From a virus (taxonomy: Duplodnaviria; Caudoviricetes): a stretch of 64,000 nucleotides of DNA. Below the pieces are notes generated by a model, which did not search any database, was not told where the DNA came from, and saw nothing but the letters and a program-made list of their open reading frames with translations. Each line of letters opens with the position of its first letter. The stretch's first letter is position 1. This document shows positions 6,750-58,337 of this stretch, in pieces. The position numbers and the translations under genes are program-made. The DNA lies in the IMG/VR virus record IMGVR_UViG_3300017565_000002, positions 64,001-128,000 of that record; one strand, 5' to 3'.

Positions 6750-7247
6750 ATGAAGAAAAAGGGATTCGTTCACATTAAAGAATATGACCTTACCAAAATG
6801 ATTTTGGATAGACTTGATATCGATATTGAAGATGATTATGTGATGATCAATGGTATCGAACCCCTGCAATATAAAGACAAACCACTTATCTTGCCAGACT
6901 ATAAAGATTACATGGCTTATATGAATAGAGGTGTGGTTTTTAGACCATTTTCCAACCTTTCACATGCACAATACCTTATCAATATGTTTTCTGACATAAA
7001 TTCCTGCACAGTCATTTTTGAATATATGAATAGTGAGCGAGTGAAAAAAGATGAAGACGTTAAGCTGTATGATGGTGTCTTGGTAATCAGTGATGATGAG
7101 AAGAAAATGCGTCGACGTATGACATTCAGGGGTGTAAGAAACATCTCGGTCTTGATGACTGCAACCGTGATGAAGTCTATCATGGATTACGATGCATTCC
7201 ATGCGCTGATTTATGATATCTTAAAGATTGACAAAAAAATCGTTTGA
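6750..7247 (+). CDS. hypothetical protein
   Basis: 165 aa ORF with RBS AAGGG. Confidence 0.7.
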   Translation: MKKKGFVHIKEYDLTKMILDRLDIDIEDDYVMINGIEPLQYKDKPLILPDYKDYMAYMNRGVVFRPFSNLSHAQYLINMFSDINSCTVIFEYMNSERVKKDEDVKLYDGVLVISDDEKKMRRRMTFRGVRNISVLMTATVMKSIMDYDAFHALIYDILKIDKKIV

Positions 7248-7256
7248 GGTTAAATT

Positions 7257-8453
7257 ATGGAATGGACTAGTGGACAAAAAGAATGTATACATCTTGCTAA
7301 TCGATGGCTTAAGAAACAGGATAAGCAAGTTTTCCAGTATTCGGGCCCAGCTGGAACCGGGAAGACAACTATCATGCCTGAGATCTTATCGAAGAGTAAG
7401 TTGGATGTAGATACAGAGGTGTTATGCATGGCCTTTACGGGGCGTGCGGCATCTAACCTTAGCTTAAAAGGTCTTCCTGCATCCTCTATGCATTCTGCAC
7501 TTATGGATTGTGTCACTGTTCCTAAGAAAGATGAGAACGGTAGAGAGATTTATGCCAACGGAAGAAAGGTAACAACATGGCAATTTGTCAAAAAGGAATT
7601 TCTCCCTCGATCGATAAAACTATTGGTTATCGATGAGGGTTTATTCGTTGGAACTGAAATGGGTCAAATAGCTGAGTCGTTCGGTCTCCCCATATGTGTG
7701 ATGGGGGACACCGAACAGCTTGGCCCCTTGTATGGGAAACCCTATTTTTTAAACTATGATAATATCGATTATACCTTGGATGAGATTACCCGACAGGCAA
7801 AGGGTTCGGGTATTATTGAACTGGCGACACGAATCAGGCTGGGTCAAGAACTCCCAAGGCGGAAATACAGATTTAAGGATGATGCATTTATCATCCCGAA
7901 GAAAGAGATTACAGATACCGTGTTACTAAACTCGGATATTATCTTGTGTGGGAAGAACCGCACAAGGAATTATTTCAATAAGCGAATCAGGGAAGATATC
8001 TTAGGTATCGACTCCAAATTGCCCGTCAAAGGAGATAAACTCATTTGTCGTCATAACTACTGGGGATATAACCTTGGTGGCATATCCCTGACGAATGGGA
8101 TAATTGGGCATGTTATTAATACACCGGCTAGAAGTAGCATTGATCTAAAATCCAACACAATAAAGATCGATTTTCGTCCAGACTATATCGACTATGACTA
8201 TTATGAAAATCTTCCAGTCGATATCGGCTTCTTCCAAGCAGATTGTGGTCCTGATAAGAAATATGATCCATTCAGTAAAGGGATGAAATTTGAGCTAGGT
8301 CACGCGATTACTGTACACGTTTCTCAAGGTTCTCAGTTTGATACCGCCACCTATTGGGATGAGCCGAACCCTATGATGAGTTCAGATTTGTTGAGACGTA
8401 TACGGTATACAGCCGCGACTCGGGCTAGTCAGTTACTAGTATATGCGGTATAA
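7257..8453 (+). CDS. dda: Dda/RecD-like SF1B helicase
   Basis: GPAGTGKT, VIDE, GDTEQL, EITRQ, HAITVHVSQGSQF, YTAATRA. Confidence 0.9.
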   Translation: MEWTSGQKECIHLANRWLKKQDKQVFQYSGPAGTGKTTIMPEILSKSKLDVDTEVLCMAFTGRAASNLSLKGLPASSMHSALMDCVTVPKKDENGREIYANGRKVTTWQFVKKEFLPRSIKLLVIDEGLFVGTEMGQIAESFGLPICVMGDTEQLGPLYGKPYFLNYDNIDYTLDEITRQAKGSGIIELATRIRLGQELPRRKYRFKDDAFIIPKKEITDTVLLNSDIILCGKNRTRNYFNKRIREDILGIDSKLPVKGDKLICRHNYWGYNLGGISLTNGIIGHVINTPARSSIDLKSNTIKIDFRPDYIDYDYYENLPVDIGFFQADCGPDKKYDPFSKGMKFELGHAITVHVSQGSQFDTATYWDEPNPMMSSDLLRRIRYTAATRASQLLVYAV

Positions 8454-8472
8454 TATTTTTTTAAACTAGTCT

Positions 8473-8484
8473 AACAGATGAATA
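8473..8484 (+). promoter_or_regulatory. late-type promoter AACA-N6-TA (+1 at 8484)
   Basis: AACA-gatgaa-TA immediately before a structured GC-rich block. Confidence 0.55.
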
Positions 8485-8640
8485 TCCGATTGGGCCGCGC
8501 GGATTGCGGGGCTAGTTTCGGATACAGCTTAGGGTATTATACCTCGGTCGTTGAGAAGATTGGCCGATCGAGGTATTTACCCGACCCCAAACCCCAATAT
8601 CTCCCCATACGCCCGCTCTCAGCGTATGGGGAAACTACTT
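8484..8640 (+). ncRNA. candidate structured small RNA (~155 nt), family unknown
   Basis: Stems ATCCGA/TCGGAT, CCGCG/TGCGG, GGGTA/TACCC, ATACCTC/GAGGTAT and GGTCG/TGGCC. G-U pairs favour the + strand. Ends in the hairpin TCCCCATACGC/GCGTATGGGGA (8602-8632). Confidence 0.6.
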
Positions 8641-8665
8641 TTAAATTAATTCTAATTATACATCA

Positions 8666-8726
8666 AACAAATTTATGATTAATACCCATCCTAGAAGCGT
8701 CACTTTATTTTTCAGACATATATTAT
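8666..8726 (+). promoter_or_regulatory. tandem late (AACA-aattta-TG, 8666-8677) and early (ATATATTAT, 8718-8726) promoter motifs
   Basis: Both motifs lie upstream of 8815; leader hairpin GACTTAG/CTAAGTT. Confidence 0.5.
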
Positions 8727-8814
8727 TGACGTGTACTAGGTAGTATATTTAAGTACCGCCTAACGACTTAGCCAGGTCTAAGTTGGACAACCCATTTTAA
8801 GGAGGAAGCAATAC

Positions 8815-9282
8815 ATGTCTAACAAACTTAAGCATCAACTGAAGCAATTGAGAAAGCAGCAAGAGAAGTATCAAGAAGCTGTGGCGTTACAACAAGCCAC
8901 ATGCCCGCATATCAGCAAGAAGGGGAACAGCTGGCTTGTGCCTTTTACCGACGTCGATAAAGTCGAAAAGGGCAGATGCAAAAAATGCGGTGCCGTTATC
9001 TATATCGATCAACACCTGCTTGGTGGAGACAGTCTTAAAATGTCTACGAACGTGGTCAAATCAGTCTTGGCAGAAATTCGCGCGGCAAACCGCGAGGGTA
9101 AAATCGAATTGAATGATTCTGAAATGGATCTTATCACTCGATTCGACGCCCAAATTTTGAGCGAACTTCCAAAGACGATTGAAAGCTTGACGCAGGCATC
9201 TAAGAAGAAAAAGAAAGATAAAGGCAAGAAGAAAGATAAAAAGAAAAAGGCATACAGAGAGTACACACGGAAAAAGTGGTAG
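8815..9282 (+). CDS. hypothetical Zn-ribbon protein with Lys-rich tail
   Basis: CPH...CKKC ligands, C-terminal KKKKKDKGKKKDKKKK, strong RBS AAGGAGG. Confidence 0.75.
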   Translation: MSNKLKHQLKQLRKQQEKYQEAVALQQATCPHISKKGNSWLVPFTDVDKVEKGRCKKCGAVIYIDQHLLGGDSLKMSTNVVKSVLAEIRAANREGKIELNDSEMDLITRFDAQILSELPKTIESLTQASKKKKKDKGKKKDKKKKAYREYTRKKW

Positions 9283-9342
9283 TATAAACTTTCCAACCGG
9301 GTATTCTTATAAAATGATCTTTTGTCGACAGAAGACCATTTA

Positions 9343-9378
9343 CGAGTACGGGAGAAATCCCGTACTCGATTATTTTTT
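9343..9378 (+). terminator. intrinsic terminator
   Basis: CGAGTACGGGA-gaaa-TCCCGTACTCG followed by T-rich tail. Confidence 0.85.
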
Positions 9379-9394
9379 GTAGAGGAGGCTAATT

Positions 9395-9631
9395 ATGATT
9401 AAGACACGCAGAAAACTTATTCCGAAAAGACCGCGTGTTGTGGTGTCTGTGTCGGGTGGTGTAGCGGAGATCGAACATAACCCGGAAAACTTGGGAGTTC
9501 TTATCATAGATTTGGATAATGGGGAATCCCCTGTCGATGTAGTCGTTATAGTCGAAGGTGGGGTTGCCTACGAATGGCAATCCTCAGATGTTAATTTAGA
9601 GATCGTCGATTATGACAATGAAGAAGATTAA
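9395..9631 (+). CDS. small hypothetical protein with internal duplication
   Basis: RBS GAGGAGG; VVVSVSGGVA...IIDLDN and VVVIVEGGVA...IVDYDN. Confidence 0.75.
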   Translation: MIKTRRKLIPKRPRVVVSVSGGVAEIEHNPENLGVLIIDLDNGESPVDVVVIVEGGVAYEWQSSDVNLEIVDYDNEED

Positions 9632-9657
9632 TATATAGATTATAATTTTTTTACCTT

Positions 9658-9710
9658 ATATATTATCTTTTTGGTATCTACTAATTTACAAGACCGAAAA
9701 CAATTCAATG
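9658..9710 (+). promoter_or_regulatory. early (ATATATTAT 9658-9666) and late (AACA-attcaa-TG 9699-9710) promoter motifs
   Basis: Upstream of the gyrB-gyrA unit. Confidence 0.5.
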
Positions 9711-9724
9711 GGAGATGAACAAAT

Positions 9725-9811
9725 GTGGACTTTACTGAAGTTCCAGCAAAGATTATCGATGCCATGACTTATTTTAATACAATATGGCAACAAGTAAAGA
9801 ATTTGAAATAG
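9725..9811 (+). CDS. 28-aa small ORF (MDFTEVPAKIIDAMTYFNTIWQQVKNLK)
   Basis: GTG start after GGGAG; the stop overlaps the gyrB RBS. Confidence 0.4.
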   Translation: MDFTEVPAKIIDAMTYFNTIWQQVKNLK

Positions 9812-9822
9812 GAGGTTGACGC

Positions 9823-12183
9823 ATGTATATCATACATCGGCGACATCGTATCGGGTTTAACCCATACGAGTACAATGATGCGTCCGTAACTGTACTTACG
9901 GAAGACAGACTAAGAGTACGAGCCACACCAAAGCTTTACCTTCCTAACGTAGGGAAGGAAGGTGCACTCCATTTGATTGAGGAAGTTGTGGCAAATGCCA
10001 TTGACGAGATTTCATCTCCGGGATCAGTAGGAAATGAGGTTATCGTTATTTACGATGAAAGGACTAAGACTGTTATTGTGCAAGATAACGGTCGGGGATT
10101 TCCTTTCAATAAGCTATTTGACATGTGTGAAGTTCTGAACTCCAGTGCAAAGATGGGTGAAGGTGCAAGAGCCTACAGTACATCCGGTGGTGTACATGGT
10201 ATGGGTCTTAAACTGGTCAACTATTTCACGGAGTATATGACCATTCATACGGAACGCGAAGGAAAGTCTCTGAAGGTTCATTATGTCGATGGACTTCGGA
10301 AAGAAGTTAAACATGGGAAGTCAAAAGAAACTGGTACTTCTGTAGAGTGGAAATACGATAAACGCTTCTTTACCGATATCAATATCACATGTGAAGACAT
10401 CCTGACGATGTTGAGATTAAAAAGTTATGTACTTCGTCTCGGTGCTTCCGTTATCTTTAAAGGAAAGCTCAAGGATGGTTCGGATGTATTAAAGGAGTTC
10501 AAAGATAATACTTTGAAAGACTTCCTTAAACAGCATTCGATCAGTGTTCCTCCGATTGAAATCTCGGATATCTTCGGAGGCGATAGCATCCACGCGATGT
10601 TTAGCTTCAACTCCGAGGCTACCGAGGGTTATACATTTGCGGCGTATACAAATAATATCTTCAATAAATTGGGCGGTTCTCATGTCGATGGCATTCTGGA
10701 AGGGATAAATAGTTTCTTCCGGTCATATCTATATGACGAATACCTGTCTGATAAAGAAAAGAAAGAATTGAAGATTAAAGCTGAAGATTCTCGACTGGGA
10801 TTAGTGGGTATTGTATCCGTACATACACACAATCCATCCTTCGAGGGTGGTCAGCATAAAGCACTTCTTGGTATGAACTCCGTTAAGAATTTTGCATTCC
10901 GGGCGACCCGGAAGGTATTACGTCAAATGGATAAATCCAAGTTGAATAAATTCGCTGCCATCATCAAGGCTAATGCAAAGGCTAGGCAAGCATCTGAGGA
11001 AAGTAAGAAGAGAGTAAAGAAAGATATTACAAATGCGTTCTCTGCTGATAAGATTGAAAACTTTCGACCAATATCTAAGCGCTCTACGCGGTCAGATACG
11101 GAAATGTTTATCGTAGAGGGATTGTCAGCGATGGGTGCAATGGAAGCTGTTGCAGATCGTGACACCCAAGCATTGCTGGCCATTCGTGGTAAACTCGATA
11201 ATGTATTTGATCTTACGCCAGAAGAAGCTGTTAATAAATCTGAATTCGTATCGAACATGGTCGACATTTTTGGTTGTGGTATTGGGAAGACGTTTGATAT
11301 TAAGAAATTCCCGTATGAGCGTATATACCTTGCGACTGATGCGGATACCGACGGAAATGAAATTGCTTGCCAAGGTGCCATGATATTCTTCCGCTTCTTT
11401 GAACCCGTTGTAACGGCTGGGAAGTTATATCGTGCTGTACCGCCACTATATGAAATTCGTCAAGATGGGAAATCAATGTTTGTCCCAACGAGTCGTATAT
11501 TCTTGACGATAACTCAACAAAACTTCGTTAAGCAAAATACAGTCTATTTGAACGGTAAGCCATTGAGAGGGGACCATATTCTTGATCTCCTGATGCGAAA
11601 CGAGACTTACGTTACTCAAATCAATCGTATTGCAGATGAGTACGCCATTTCTCCAATATTATGTGAGTTTTTAATTAAGAATCAAGCAATTGGGTTTGGA
11701 AATGATACAGTGGATAAGTGGAGCAAAGCACTGGCACGTAATTTTACGTTCTTGAAGGTTCAACCCGGAGAATTTGGTATCTCCATCGTTGGGATGATCA
11801 AAACCGAGTTTAATCTGTTTGATTATGTAAAAGAATTTAGCGAGGACATCCAAACAATATCCCTCGATAGGGAGTTTTATGGGTATTCGATCAATGATAA
11901 AGATAAGTCCCACCTATCCTTATATGAAACGCTGAAAGAATTCGAAAAGTTTCAGCCGAATATCATATCTAGGTTTAAAGGTCTCGGTGAGATGAATTCG
12001 AAAGACATGAAGCGTACGATCATGGAACGGAAAGTCCGCCATAGCATTCGTCTCACAGCAAGGCATCTCCAAGACACATATGATAAACTTGCTGTCATGC
12101 ATTCACGGAGACCAAACTATCAGAAGCTTAGAAAGGAATTCATTTCAAACTTTAAATTCGATATCATGGATATCGATACGTAG
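9823..12183 (+). CDS. gyrB: type IIA topoisomerase B subunit (GyrB/ParE-like)
   Basis: EVVANAIDE, QDNGRG, GGVHGMGL, IVEGLSA, IRGK, ATDADTDG, RFKGLGEM. Confidence 0.95.
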   Translation: MYIIHRRHRIGFNPYEYNDASVTVLTEDRLRVRATPKLYLPNVGKEGALHLIEEVVANAIDEISSPGSVGNEVIVIYDERTKTVIVQDNGRGFPFNKLFDMCEVLNSSAKMGEGARAYSTSGGVHGMGLKLVNYFTEYMTIHTEREGKSLKVHYVDGLRKEVKHGKSKETGTSVEWKYDKRFFTDINITCEDILTMLRLKSYVLRLGASVIFKGKLKDGSDVLKEFKDNTLKDFLKQHSISVPPIEISDIFGGDSIHAMFSFNSEATEGYTFAAYTNNIFNKLGGSHVDGILEGINSFFRSYLYDEYLSDKEKKELKIKAEDSRLGLVGIVSVHTHNPSFEGGQHKALLGMNSVKNFAFRATRKVLRQMDKSKLNKFAAIIKANAKARQASEESKKRVKKDITNAFSADKIENFRPISKRSTRSDTEMFIVEGLSAMGAMEAVADRDTQALLAIRGKLDNVFDLTPEEAVNKSEFVSNMVDIFGCGIGKTFDIKKFPYERIYLATDADTDGNEIACQGAMIFFRFFEPVVTAGKLYRAVPPLYEIRQDGKSMFVPTSRIFLTITQQNFVKQNTVYLNGKPLRGDHILDLLMRNETYVTQINRIADEYAISPILCEFLIKNQAIGFGNDTVDKWSKALARNFTFLKVQPGEFGISIVGMIKTEFNLFDYVKEFSEDIQTISLDREFYGYSINDKDKSHLSLYETLKEFEKFQPNIISRFKGLGEMNSKDMKRTIMERKVRHSIRLTARHLQDTYDKLAVMHSRRPNYQKLRKEFISNFKFDIMDIDT

Positions 12184-23859: not shown

Positions 23860-25956
23860 ATGTTGAAGCCAGAACAAATTGAAGATCTTCGAAGGATTGC
23901 CGCTGAAATCAAATCTATTGACCATGTATATGGTAGCGGCTTAATGACACCATTTGGGGTGAAGGTCAACTCATCCCGTGCAGCAATGACATATCAACAG
24001 TTGACACAAGCAAAGAATTTGGATACACCGGAAATTGCGAGAGTAAGCACCGGGTATGAGAAAGTATATGGAGACAGGTCCACTTCCTTCTATGAATCAG
24101 AGAAGAAAGTTGATGTGGTCCATAAGATCCAAAAATTTGGCAACGATTCTGTCTATGTATTGATTACCAGAGAGAAAGGAACTAACCACTACGATCTTAT
24201 TGAACGGAAAGCTGTTGAATCTTTCGCTGAATCCAGTGGCGTCAAAATCAACAATGAAGTTATCGACAAGAAAAAACCGGGAAGTATAATTGATAAAGGA
24301 GAAATCCTCTATCGGTCGACTTCCTACGATGAAGATATGAACTATCGTCTCGGCGTTAATGCTAAGACGCTATATATGGTATCACCATTCATTATAGAGG
24401 ATGCTGTAGACGTTTCCAACAGACTTGCGGAAAAGCTAAGAAGTACCTCGGTTCAGACATATACGATACCAAAGAACACCAATGATGTCTTCCTCAATAC
24501 CTATGGGACTAAGCATCATTATAAAGTATTCCCGGATATTGGAGAGAAGGTAAAGGACAGAACACTTTGTGTTCGCAGGCGAATTGACTATAACAACGCC
24601 CAATATCTATTGAAGGGTAAAAACCTTCGCAAAGAGATGCATGGGGATACTGCCTATTATACACCGGCTGATGCCGAAGTTGTCGATATCGACATCTACT
24701 GTAATACACCATTTGATGAATTACCAAGGGACAATGCACATGCCCAGATCAATAAATATCTGGACATGACTACAGCGTATTGGCAAACGATATACGATAC
24801 TTTATCCGAAATCTGCGGGGATGAAAAGAACACTTACTCGGATAATATCGGACTATTCTATGCACGGGCTCGTGATGTGCTGAGTATCGGCAAGCGAGTG
24901 AAGTGGAAAACCGAGGTATCGATTTTTGACAATATGATTATCACGATCACCATAGCAAAAAGTTCTCCGGCAATGGAAGGTTCTAAGTTGGTTGGTCGCC
25001 ACGGAAATAAATGTGTCATATCTAGGATTGTACCGGATGACCAAATGCCGGTAGACGAGGATGGAAATTTCTGCGATATCCAATACAATGCACAGAGTGT
25101 TATCGCGCGTCTTAATCAGTCACAATCCTATGAGCCTGAGATGAATTGGATTGTGGATGAGATTCTAAAAGGTAAAGCATCCAAAGAAGTCAAATTTGAA
25201 TCACTGATGATTTTCTTAAGTCTTTGCAACCCAGATCAGGAGAAAATGATTCGAAAATTCTTCGAACAACTATCCAGGGAGGAAAAGAAGAAATTTTTAG
25301 ATGAAATAACGACGGAATTTGTGACGTTCCAGCCACCTTCAAAGACCGTCACTTTTGAAAATTATTCAAAAATGATTGATAAGTTCAAACCGAAGAAGAA
25401 AAGATTTACAATTAAGAGCAAAGATGGGACCGTGTCCAAGATCCAACGGAAACTGATTATGTCGGATACCTATGTATATCGACTGAAACACGAACCGATT
25501 ACAAAGTTCTCCGTTCGGTCTAAGGGTACAATCAATCCAAGGACGTTTCTCCCGATCAAGTCTCATGCTTACAGCCGGGGGACGGCACTGTTCAACAACC
25601 AAGCGATTCGGCTTGGGACGATGGAGATGGATGTGTTAAGACTGTGTAACGATCCTGCTGCTATCAACTATATGACCAGATTATATTGCACGTCGGTCGT
25701 TGGGCGCAGGGAATTTAATAGACTCCTAAACATGGATATATTCTCTAAAGAGATGCAAATCGACATGGAGAATCATAAATCCAGAGTAGTGGACATGTTT
25801 AACTCCACTTTGCTTGCAGCTGGCTACGTACTTTCCATTGAGCTTGGAGAGACAGAAGAAATCAAGAATGAACTCATGATGGATCTGGCCGAGATGAGCA
25901 AGAAGAATGTTAAGCTTGTGTTTAAACAGTCGTATTTAGAAACTCGTAATAAATAA
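23860..25956 (+). CDS. rpoB: RNA polymerase beta C-terminal half, probably non-virion RNAP
   Basis: SSRAAM, IIEDA, GSKLVGRHGNKCVIS, RLKHEP..KFSVRS, IRLGTMEM. Confidence 0.9.
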   Translation: MLKPEQIEDLRRIAAEIKSIDHVYGSGLMTPFGVKVNSSRAAMTYQQLTQAKNLDTPEIARVSTGYEKVYGDRSTSFYESEKKVDVVHKIQKFGNDSVYVLITREKGTNHYDLIERKAVESFAESSGVKINNEVIDKKKPGSIIDKGEILYRSTSYDEDMNYRLGVNAKTLYMVSPFIIEDAVDVSNRLAEKLRSTSVQTYTIPKNTNDVFLNTYGTKHHYKVFPDIGEKVKDRTLCVRRRIDYNNAQYLLKGKNLRKEMHGDTAYYTPADAEVVDIDIYCNTPFDELPRDNAHAQINKYLDMTTAYWQTIYDTLSEICGDEKNTYSDNIGLFYARARDVLSIGKRVKWKTEVSIFDNMIITITIAKSSPAMEGSKLVGRHGNKCVISRIVPDDQMPVDEDGNFCDIQYNAQSVIARLNQSQSYEPEMNWIVDEILKGKASKEVKFESLMIFLSLCNPDQEKMIRKFFEQLSREEKKKFLDEITTEFVTFQPPSKTVTFENYSKMIDKFKPKKKRFTIKSKDGTVSKIQRKLIMSDTYVYRLKHEPITKFSVRSKGTINPRTFLPIKSHAYSRGTALFNNQAIRLGTMEMDVLRLCNDPAAINYMTRLYCTSVVGRREFNRLLNMDIFSKEMQIDMENHKSRVVDMFNSTLLAAGYVLSIELGETEEIKNELMMDLAEMSKKNVKLVFKQSYLETRNK

Positions 25957-28208: not shown

Positions 28209-28220
28209 AACAATTTATTG
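28209..28220 (+). promoter_or_regulatory. late promoter AACA-N6-TG (+1 at 28220)
   Basis: AACA-atttat-TG, 8 nt before the closing helix of the RNA candidate. Confidence 0.55.
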
Positions 28221-28540
28221 AATCTGAATCTTAGTCGAAGGGTCGCCAGAGGCGATTTTGGATCAAATCTCTTCGTACTCATAATCGCTTTACCGTAGAC
28301 GGAACTGACTGTGCATGTGCGCGGCGGCGAACAATGGGCTAGGGATGTGAAGAGTGCAGGTTGTTTTACCATCGGCCTTGTACTGAAGAATTCCAACGCT
28401 CGGTTTGCATTCTGTCATTTGAGGGAGAGCTGGAGACTGATACGGAGGTACGATCAAACAATTCCAAATGGACCCTGTTTGACTAAGGTGATAAGATCAG
28501 TAACGGACTGAGCCATAAAGGTGCTCAGTCCGTTATCTTT
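28220..28540 (+). ncRNA. candidate large structured ncRNA (core 28228-28489, ~262 nt), family unknown
   Basis: 5' ATCTTAGTCGAAGGGTC pairs with 3' GACCCTGTTTGACTAAGGT. Nested helices 28273-80/28445-53, 28327-32/28403-08 and 28353-60/28376-84. G-U pairs favour the + strand. Confidence 0.7.
28501..28540 (+). terminator. terminator closing the ncRNA candidate
   Basis: 13-bp perfect stem TAACGGACTGAGC/GCTCAGTCCGTTA followed by TCTTT. Confidence 0.8.
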
Positions 28541-55877: not shown

Positions 55878-56785
55878 TGACAACGAAAACCGCTGATGAG
55901 CAGTTCAATGCACTTGTGATGGACATTTACGAAAACGGGGTGTGGGAACAACCCGAGGACATTCGAGCTAAATGGGCGGACGGCACACCGGCAGCCACAA
56001 AAGCTGTAAATGATGTCCAATTGAAATTCGAAAATCAAGACGATAATAAAGCTCCGATTCTAACAACCAAGTTTGTTGCATGGAAAACGGCGATACATGA
56101 AATATTATGGATTTGGCAGCAGAAGAGTAATGAGATATCCTATCTGCAAGAACGCGGTATTCATATTTGGGATTCATGGGCAGTCCGTAACCCACTTGGT
56201 GGTTTCGGTGGGACGATCGGCAAGGGATATGGTTTCCAATTGAATGAGAAATGTCGTTCGGTTTTCATGCCGAGACCAGATTCTAATTCTGTGTGGACGC
56301 ATTCGTCAGTCGAGATGGACCAAGTGGACTATATGCTCCATTTACTTACCACATCTCCGGGTAGTCGCCGTAACATTGTCACACTCTGGGATAAAAACGA
56401 TTTGGACTACATGACAATCACACCCTGCGTCTGGAGCAGTCAATGGATTCGTAAAAATGGCAAGTTAAACTTGACGGTTAACGTCAGGTCCAATGACATC
56501 TGCGTAGGGAATCCCTTTAATGTGTTTCAATACTACGTGCTACAGCGGATGGTTTCTCAAGTAACGAATATCCCAATGGGTACATTGGTATTTAACATCA
56601 CCGACGCCCACATCTATGATCGTCATTTGGAAACAGCAGTCATCCAAGTCCAAGAGCCTATGTTTGAACCGCCGGTCTTGGAAATTGATCCTTCCGTCAA
56701 GAACTTCTATGATTTCCGCATTGAGCATTTCAATCTGGTTAACTACCAGTATTCGAAGAAATTTAGTTACGAAGTTGCTATATAA
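55877..56785 (+). CDS. thyA: thymidylate synthase
   Basis: PILTTK, AIHEILWIW, IWDSW, YGFQ, RRNIVTLW, PCVW, RSND, NVFQY, DAHIYDRH. Confidence 0.95.
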   Translation: MTTKTADEQFNALVMDIYENGVWEQPEDIRAKWADGTPAATKAVNDVQLKFENQDDNKAPILTTKFVAWKTAIHEILWIWQQKSNEISYLQERGIHIWDSWAVRNPLGGFGGTIGKGYGFQLNEKCRSVFMPRPDSNSVWTHSSVEMDQVDYMLHLLTTSPGSRRNIVTLWDKNDLDYMTITPCVWSSQWIRKNGKLNLTVNVRSNDICVGNPFNVFQYYVLQRMVSQVTNIPMGTLVFNITDAHIYDRHLETAVIQVQEPMFEPPVLEIDPSVKNFYDFRIEHFNLVNYQYSKKFSYEVAI

Positions 56786-56836
56786 TAATGAGGGGCTGTG
56801 AATCTTGAATTCACGGCCCACATTTTTTAGACTGGA

Positions 56837-58312: not shown

Positions 58313-58337
58313 AAAATTATCAGCCTCCAAACCCAAT

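Follow-up and report, generated by a model that had tools for sequence, protein, structure and literature searches.

Genetic context of the element

The interval that follows the helicase gene in this phage genome raises the question of whether a stretch of ~159 nt, bounded by a promoter motif and a hairpin, is the gene for a small RNA or an elaborate end to the message of the gene upstream. The 64000 bp of DNA analysed here, referred to as the window, correspond to bases 64001–128000 of a 215.8 kb record that has direct terminal repeats and a GC content of 41%. Identical DNA of this phage was found in four DNA sequencing runs from two soil studies, with no RNA run among them, and as the four are identical they provide no natural variation usable for covariation. 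A scan of prokaryote genomes identified no close relative, hence no clue to the host.

The closest cultured relatives of the phage are distant. A protein related to RNA polymerase beta, encoded at 23860–25953 in the window, had its best cultured match in AR9/PBS1 (33.7% identity over 96% of the length, E = 3e-89), and further RNA polymerase beta and beta' pieces (Pfam PF00562 and PF00623) are encoded elsewhere in the genome. No DNA similarity to cultured phages was detected for positions 8400–8820 of the window.

The neighbours of the element are a helicase gene and a type II topoisomerase gene. The helicase and its homologues carry the Pfam domains PF13604, PF13538 and PF13245. The helicase is ~32–34% identical to those of cultured phages annotated as Dda-like or RecD-like, and homologues at 55–64% identity were found in metagenomes only, the closest being P0002 and P0003 (64%). 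The features of the region, all on the plus strand, are as follows.

7257–8453 (+): Dda/RecD-like SF1 helicase gene (398 aa, ORF), the upstream neighbour of the element
8473–8484 (+): AR9-type late promoter motif AACA-N6-TA (AACA 8473–8476, TA 8483–8484), with predicted start at A8484
8478–8678 (+): 66-aa ORF over the element, judged non-coding (no ribosome-binding site, codon score, no homologue)
8484–8642 (+): predicted small RNA, ~159 nt, from the late promoter motif to the terminator T-run
8484–8523 (+): domain 1, a predicted GC-rich stem-loop starting at the predicted +1 (MFE and centroid structures the same; pair probabilities)
8532–8582 (+): domain 2, a predicted long, nearly perfect hairpin (MFE and centroid structures; pair probabilities)
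8583–8601 (+): C-rich, G-poor strand of 19 nt, predicted to be unpaired (probability at least 0.9 at each position)
8602–8642 (+): terminator predicted by folding, an 11-bp hairpin (8602–8632), a 6-nt spacer and TTTT (8639–8642)
8666–8677 (+): late promoter motif AACA-N6-TG for the 155-aa gene, 3' of the terminator (weight-matrix score 9.3 bits)
8718–8733 (+): early promoter ATATATTAT-N6-G for the 155-aa gene (match to the AR9 early consensus)
8815–9282 (+): conserved 155-aa gene, the downstream neighbour, with CPH...CxxC cysteine motifs and a lysine-rich tail (alignment)

The late motif, the two stem domains, the C-rich single strand and the 11-bp terminal hairpin from which the preliminary description had built its candidate RNA were all found where it had placed them. 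No tRNA or tmRNA gene was identified in the window.

Late and early promoter motifs

The late promoters of phage AR9 have the form AACA-(6N)-TA/G, in which the final base is the transcription start, and its early promoters the form AAATATATATTAT-(6N)-G (PMC5312081). The motif at 8473 has the late form, and its predicted start, A8484, is also the first base of the 5' stem. Across the genome, 37 of 161 copies (23%) of AACA-N6-T[AG] fall in the 6% that is intergenic, mostly 15–50 nt before a ribosome-binding site, and 22 of the 26 exact copies of the 9-mer ATATATTAT, which fits the AR9 early consensus, are intergenic. A related complete genome (G001) has 23% of its late and 81% of its early motifs in an intergenic fraction of 7.4%. 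As the phage encodes AR9-like multisubunit RNA polymerases and carries both AR9 promoter classes genome-wide, the motif at 8473 can be regarded as meaningful.

A weight matrix for the late promoter was built on 27 gene-proximal sites (training mean 14.7 bits, sd 4.0, minimum 6.5). The 8473 site scored 10.2 bits, inside the gene-proximal range, and 44 sites genome-wide, 26 of them intergenic and 18 within genes, scored equally or better. The chance of an equal site lying within 20 nt of the start of the structure and on the right strand, estimated from the 18 coding-region sites, is ~0.001. On these scores, the 8473 motif is a credible late promoter of the type used genome-wide.

A match to a sigma-A-like promoter was also seen at 8426–8454, in a region whose count of matches of this type, 11 where 7.4 are expected, shows no enrichment. 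The extended motif TCTAACA was considered as a mark of promoters specific to non-coding RNAs and rejected, as it precedes protein genes too in G001. A second non-coding stretch in the window (28209–28540) follows a late motif of the TCTAACA type and ends near a hairpin at ~28495–28535.

Predicted fold

The predicted RNA has an MFE of -69.5 kcal/mol, compared with -49.3 +/- 3.9 kcal/mol for 200 dinucleotide shuffles (z = -5.2). After correction for GC content, made by regressing MFE on GC content over all 5392 overlapping 160-nt windows of the genome (plus strand), the grid window starting at 8481 ranked first and the RNA span starting at 8484 second. The next outliers were positions 164361–164520 of the genome (window ~100361; z = -3.8), an AT-rich intergenic region with early-promoter motifs, and window positions 7601–7760 (z = -3.7), inside the helicase gene.

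The C-rich strand was predicted to stay unpaired even when the terminator was kept from forming. A G-free run at 8584–8610, 52% C and including CUCC, is a candidate pairing seed, and part of the CUCC motif of the window (8602–8606) falls within the terminator stem. A search of the genome for paralogues recovered the element alone, and a short stretch at 58326 resembling the C-rich block was set aside as a chance match beside an early promoter.

The reverse strand folds about equally (-70.2 kcal/mol, z = -4.4), and the fold alone therefore does not set the strand. The plus strand was assigned from the promoter and T-run, from the direction of the genes and from the C-rich asymmetry common to the relatives. 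The hairpin at 8602–8642 is not a textbook intrinsic terminator, and a strict terminator scan passed over it owing to the 6-nt spacer before the T-run.

Two finer points of the preliminary description fared less well. The pentamer GATTG does occur three times, as noted there, but the repetition is not meaningful, since 38% of shuffles contain a 5-mer in three copies. The alternative pairing that had been taken to allow a pseudoknot or switch was not upheld: 6 nt of complementarity linking the C-rich strand to the 5' domain arise in 19% of shuffles, comparison by eye revealed no counterpart in the relatives, and no fold rivals the terminator.

Relatives of the unit

Conservation in related genomes, to which the preliminary description had looked for confirmation, was found using pattern scans together with helicase alignment. 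Three uncultured phages (loci L002, from a complete 247-kb genome, L015 and L020) have a similarly built unit in the same location, between a helicase gene (60–64% protein identity) and a gene for the 155-aa protein. The late motif before the unit is a canonical AACA-N6-TG in L002 and L020 and deviates in L015, with A for T at -1; in L002 and L020, as in the window, the 5' stem has its first base at the predicted +1. All four units have an unpaired, G-poor, C/U-rich linker containing CUCC, and this is followed by a terminator, an early promoter and the 155-aa gene.

The unit is ~159 nt long in the window and ~117, 96 and 99 nt in the three relatives, and the G-free stretch of L015 extends to 71 nt and that of L020 to 34 nt. 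Folding is more stable than expected by chance in L002 (z = -5.5) and L020 (z = -3.1). The window and L015 have short sequence blocks in common in the linker. Outside the linker the four RNAs are unalignable and their 5' domains differ, which rules out a covariation test. Judging from these loci, the unit is a trait of one sub-lineage, kept by position and architecture and not by sequence. Trans-acting small RNAs are typically retained in this way. In L015, a 46-aa ORF that includes a hydrophobic segment (L015 coordinates 2768–2908) separates the helicase gene from the RNA unit; the window has nothing equivalent.

At ten further, more distantly related loci (L003–L009, viral contigs; L016–L019, metagenome copies of four; and L017, a further contig) only a terminator was found, the helicase gene being followed by a hairpin, a short spacer, a T-run and an early promoter. 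The terminal hairpins of L003–L009, L017, L020, L015 and the window all have a spacer of 3–8 nt before the T-run, and in none is the T-run adjacent; this spaced layout may serve the phage polymerases as their signal to terminate. Where other genes lie between the helicase gene and the 155-aa gene (L007/L051), no such unit was found before the 155-aa gene.

The downstream gene

Orthologues of the 155-aa gene with 40–44% identity are present in L002 (5570–6067) and L020 (4410–4880), and L015 includes the N-terminus. The conserved protein is 155–165 aa long and its gene lies directly after the RNA unit in each of the four phages carrying the RNA. It belongs to no Pfam or PHROG family and has no match in cultured phages. 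In L002, as in the window, the gene is preceded by a late and an early promoter, and the same tandem arrangement is used in AR9 for continuously expressed genes. As the 155-aa gene, which starts 173 nt past the terminator, has late and early promoters of its own, the RNA unit is transcriptionally self-contained. A canonical strong terminator, with an 11-bp stem followed by a T-run, lies after the 155-aa gene at 9343–9368 in the window.

A proposed independent late RNA gene and its alternatives

The element is likely to be an independently transcribed small RNA, by whatever mechanism it acts, and the predicted unit would comprise its own promoter and terminator. The preliminary description had called it an independent non-coding RNA: the sequence analysis backs a candidate that is non-coding, follows a credible late promoter, has its own predicted terminator and is matched by similarly built units in three relatives. 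The fuller reading, in which window positions 8484–8642 (plus strand) are an independent late small RNA gene acting through a C-rich strand that pairs with other RNAs, was judged to be evenly balanced, and the base-pairing mechanism taken by itself is put forward tentatively, as somewhat unlikely.

By analogy with Bacillus phage AR9, the non-virion multisubunit RNA polymerase of the phage would start at A8484, directed by AACA-N6-TA, from mid or late infection onward, and transcription would stop at the 8602–8632 hairpin and T-run. The modelled RNA would consist of a stem from its first base, two very stable hairpin domains, an open C-rich strand of 19 nt and the terminator hairpin. The open strand would be the working part and would pair with G-rich sequences, for example certain mRNAs at their Shine-Dalgarno regions (GGAG/GGGG) or a G-rich RNA made by the phage, altering the translation or stability of its targets, and the hairpins would mainly confer stability. 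As the open C-rich strand is the sole feature common to RNAs with differing hairpins, a base-pairing role is favoured.

It was considered unlikely that the element is simply an elaborate 3' untranslated region of the helicase operon, with a terminator, which shields the mRNA from 3' exonucleases and in which the AACA motif is incidental or weak. From the helicase stop codon to 8473, neither reading of the sequence nor the terminator scan identified any strong hairpin followed by a T-run, and the hairpin at 8602–8642 occupies exactly the helicase-terminator position of L003–L009 and L017, with the same order of hairpin, spacer and T-run. Helicase transcripts therefore probably run into the element and end at its hairpin too, so that helicase mRNA probably has this sequence at its 3' end. 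Since the reverse strand folds equally, the hairpins by themselves give no strand information, which also suits this alternative. However, in the window, L002 and L020 the structure is immediately preceded by a late motif whose predicted +1 coincides with the start of the 5' stem, and the L015 unit is separated from the helicase gene by a small ORF. Protection of the 3' end would also leave the conserved open C-rich linker unexplained.

The evidence for an independent transcription unit applies equally if the late RNA binds a protein, either as a C-rich decoy (for Rho or ribosomal protein S1) or as a hairpin scaffold or RNA polymerase-binding element, and this alternative was also given a low probability. 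The target predictions described below are not significant, and the 5' domains, for all their size and high stability, vary among the phages. C-rich, G-poor tracts are known as Rho utilisation sites, and the long G-free stretches of L015 (71 nt) and L020 (34 nt) resemble protein-binding tracts of this composition. However, the open strand in the window measures only 19 nt, which is little for a Rho site. The element showed no identifiable motif for protein binding, and the Rfam search gave no 6S or other protein-binding RNA family.

A cis-acting leader or attenuator, setting the level of late read-through into the 155-aa gene, would account for the conserved order of promoter, structure, terminator and gene, with the same downstream gene in all four phages, and also for L020, in which no second canonical late motif was seen before the 155-aa gene on reading the sequence. 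This was nevertheless considered very unlikely. No fold competing with the terminator was found in any of the four RNAs, and the 5' arm of the hairpin is unpaired until the 3' arm is made: with the 3' arm withheld, the 5' arm and linker were predicted to be unpaired in the window and L020, and alternative pairing gained 0.5 kcal/mol in L002 and 4.9 kcal/mol in L015. An early promoter lies between the terminator and the gene, joined in the window and L002 by a late one, the gene start is as far as 173 nt past the terminator, and no riboswitch or leader family was matched in Rfam.

A role at the DNA level, as a replication origin or a packaging or recombination site beside the replication genes, appears highly improbable. 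Hairpins are possible on both strands, helicase and type II topoisomerase genes adjoin, and an AT-rich tract (27% GC) is present at 8650–8749; however, the two promoters account for this tract, no iterons or repeats above chance were found, a promoter and a terminator flank the element, and all four phages retain the C-richness of the coding strand.

The weakest alternative, that the element encodes the 66-aa protein (8478–8678) or another small peptide, deserves hardly any credence, and the element was judged to be non-coding: although an open frame of 66 codons spans it, transcription is predicted to start only after its ATG, there is no upstream Shine-Dalgarno sequence (present for 121 of 157 large genes), the codon log-odds of -0.01 are more than 4 sd below the 0.21 +/- 0.05 of phage genes, there is no Pfam or PHROG match and no conserved frame in L002, L015 or L020, and the frame crosses three strong hairpins.

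Comparison with known RNAs

The Rfam search of window positions 7000–10000 (E up to 10) gave no credible match for the element, the pRNA family included, and none was found for L002, L015 and L020 (E up to 1). The pRNA of phage phi29 is a phage-encoded structured RNA of ~120–170 nt with two domains. The element is similar in size and two-domain build, but it does not match the pRNA model and nothing links it to packaging. The suggestion that the RNA has a structural role, such as that of a prohead RNA, was therefore not retained, as nothing links it to virions either.

AR9/PBS1 late units share with this phage the late motif AACA-N6-T[A/G], the early motif ATATATTAT-N6-G and related split RNA polymerase subunits (PMC5312081). 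However, AR9 is a distant relative, its RNA polymerase beta being ~34% identical, and the AR9 helicase-gyrase region has no counterpart of the element. AR9 late promoters are reported to precede protein genes or to mark internal and antisense starts (PMC5312081), whereas in the phage studied here one lies before a unit judged to be non-coding. The main text of the AR9 paper reports antisense RNAs but not small non-coding genes, and does not contain the word 'noncoding' (PMC5312081). This transcription profiling of AR9 is the main transcript-mapping study found for the lineage, and it describes no such small RNAs.

[quoted passage not shown] The phage RNA is like the Firmicutes C-rich small RNAs RoxS/RsaE, FsrA and CsfG in its size, its unpaired C-rich region and its 3' terminator hairpin (PMC8216469, PMC5419742). 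The Firmicutes RNAs pair with G-rich ribosome-binding sites, and the same mode is proposed for the phage RNA. However, there is no sequence or covariance-model similarity between them (Rfam, E up to 10), and whereas the C-rich regions of the Firmicutes RNAs are hairpin loops, that of the phage RNA is a linker, in an RNA encoded by the phage and predicted to be made by its polymerase.

Small RNAs have also been described in giant Pseudomonas phages, for example sRNA005 of 201phi2-1 and its phiKZ counterpart (PMC11512511). These jumbo phages likewise have their own RNA polymerases, and their small RNAs are conserved in position and not in sequence. They derive from 5' untranslated regions and were mapped by ONT-cappable-seq (PMC11512511), whereas the unit studied here is free-standing, follows a gene, belongs to an AR9-like phage and is known from DNA.

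The small RNAs of phages with their own multisubunit RNA polymerases are barely charted, and the element is a plausible new phage regulatory RNA, at the level of a prediction. Its value is limited in that the phage is uncultured and the RNA predicted from sequence. If expressed, it would be a compact example, with promoter, RNA and terminator in ~170 bp all read by the phage polymerase, and a test case both for termination by these polymerases and for late control at the RNA level in a jumbo phage.

Target search

The features that define the candidate seed, CUCC and C-richness, carry little information. Shuffled seeds give duplexes as stable as the best ones with start regions of phage genes (-22.9 and -28.2 kcal/mol), and an architecture scan for further C-rich RNAs in the genome of the phage (G000) and in G001 was too unspecific.

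A purine-rich non-coding element was found in two copies that are 83% identical, at 56539–56819 (plus strand) and 201727–201927 (minus strand) of G000, and a homologous element with a G-run lies directly after a late motif in G001 (L058, near 113514, minus strand). The conserved start of the G-run is the best pairing site of the element for the C-rich strand (-28.7 kcal/mol). Pairing with the G-rich element was rejected as evidence, since, strong as it is, base composition accounts for it: the predicted G-run duplexes range from -28 to -30 kcal/mol and are equalled by 11–17% of shuffled seeds. The G-run motif is present in the complete genomes that carry the C-rich RNA (G000 and G001), and neither is found in G002 or G003. 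This co-occurrence follows phylogeny and is therefore not independent evidence.

A model for a G-rich partner is provided by B. subtilis RosA, which sponges RoxS and FsrA. That the phage has an RNA pair of its own, in which a C-rich regulator meets a G-run partner, or that the RNA shuts off late in infection the early gene at genome position 140572, was considered improbable.

When predicted targets were compared in the two genomes, over 118 pairs of orthologues, the best rank product was 0.0003, a value within chance (median expected minimum 0.0007). The top lead in this comparison, also not significant, was an early gene for a 496-aa protein, at 140572 in G000 and 246141 in G001. The sites lie at 140512–140575 in G000 (window ~76512) and ~246141–246230 (minus strand) in G001, and early promoters are present in both. 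The region of the ribosome-binding site and the cognate RNA can form nine perfect pairs in G000, and in G001 a duplex over 16 positions that includes one mismatch and one G-U pair.
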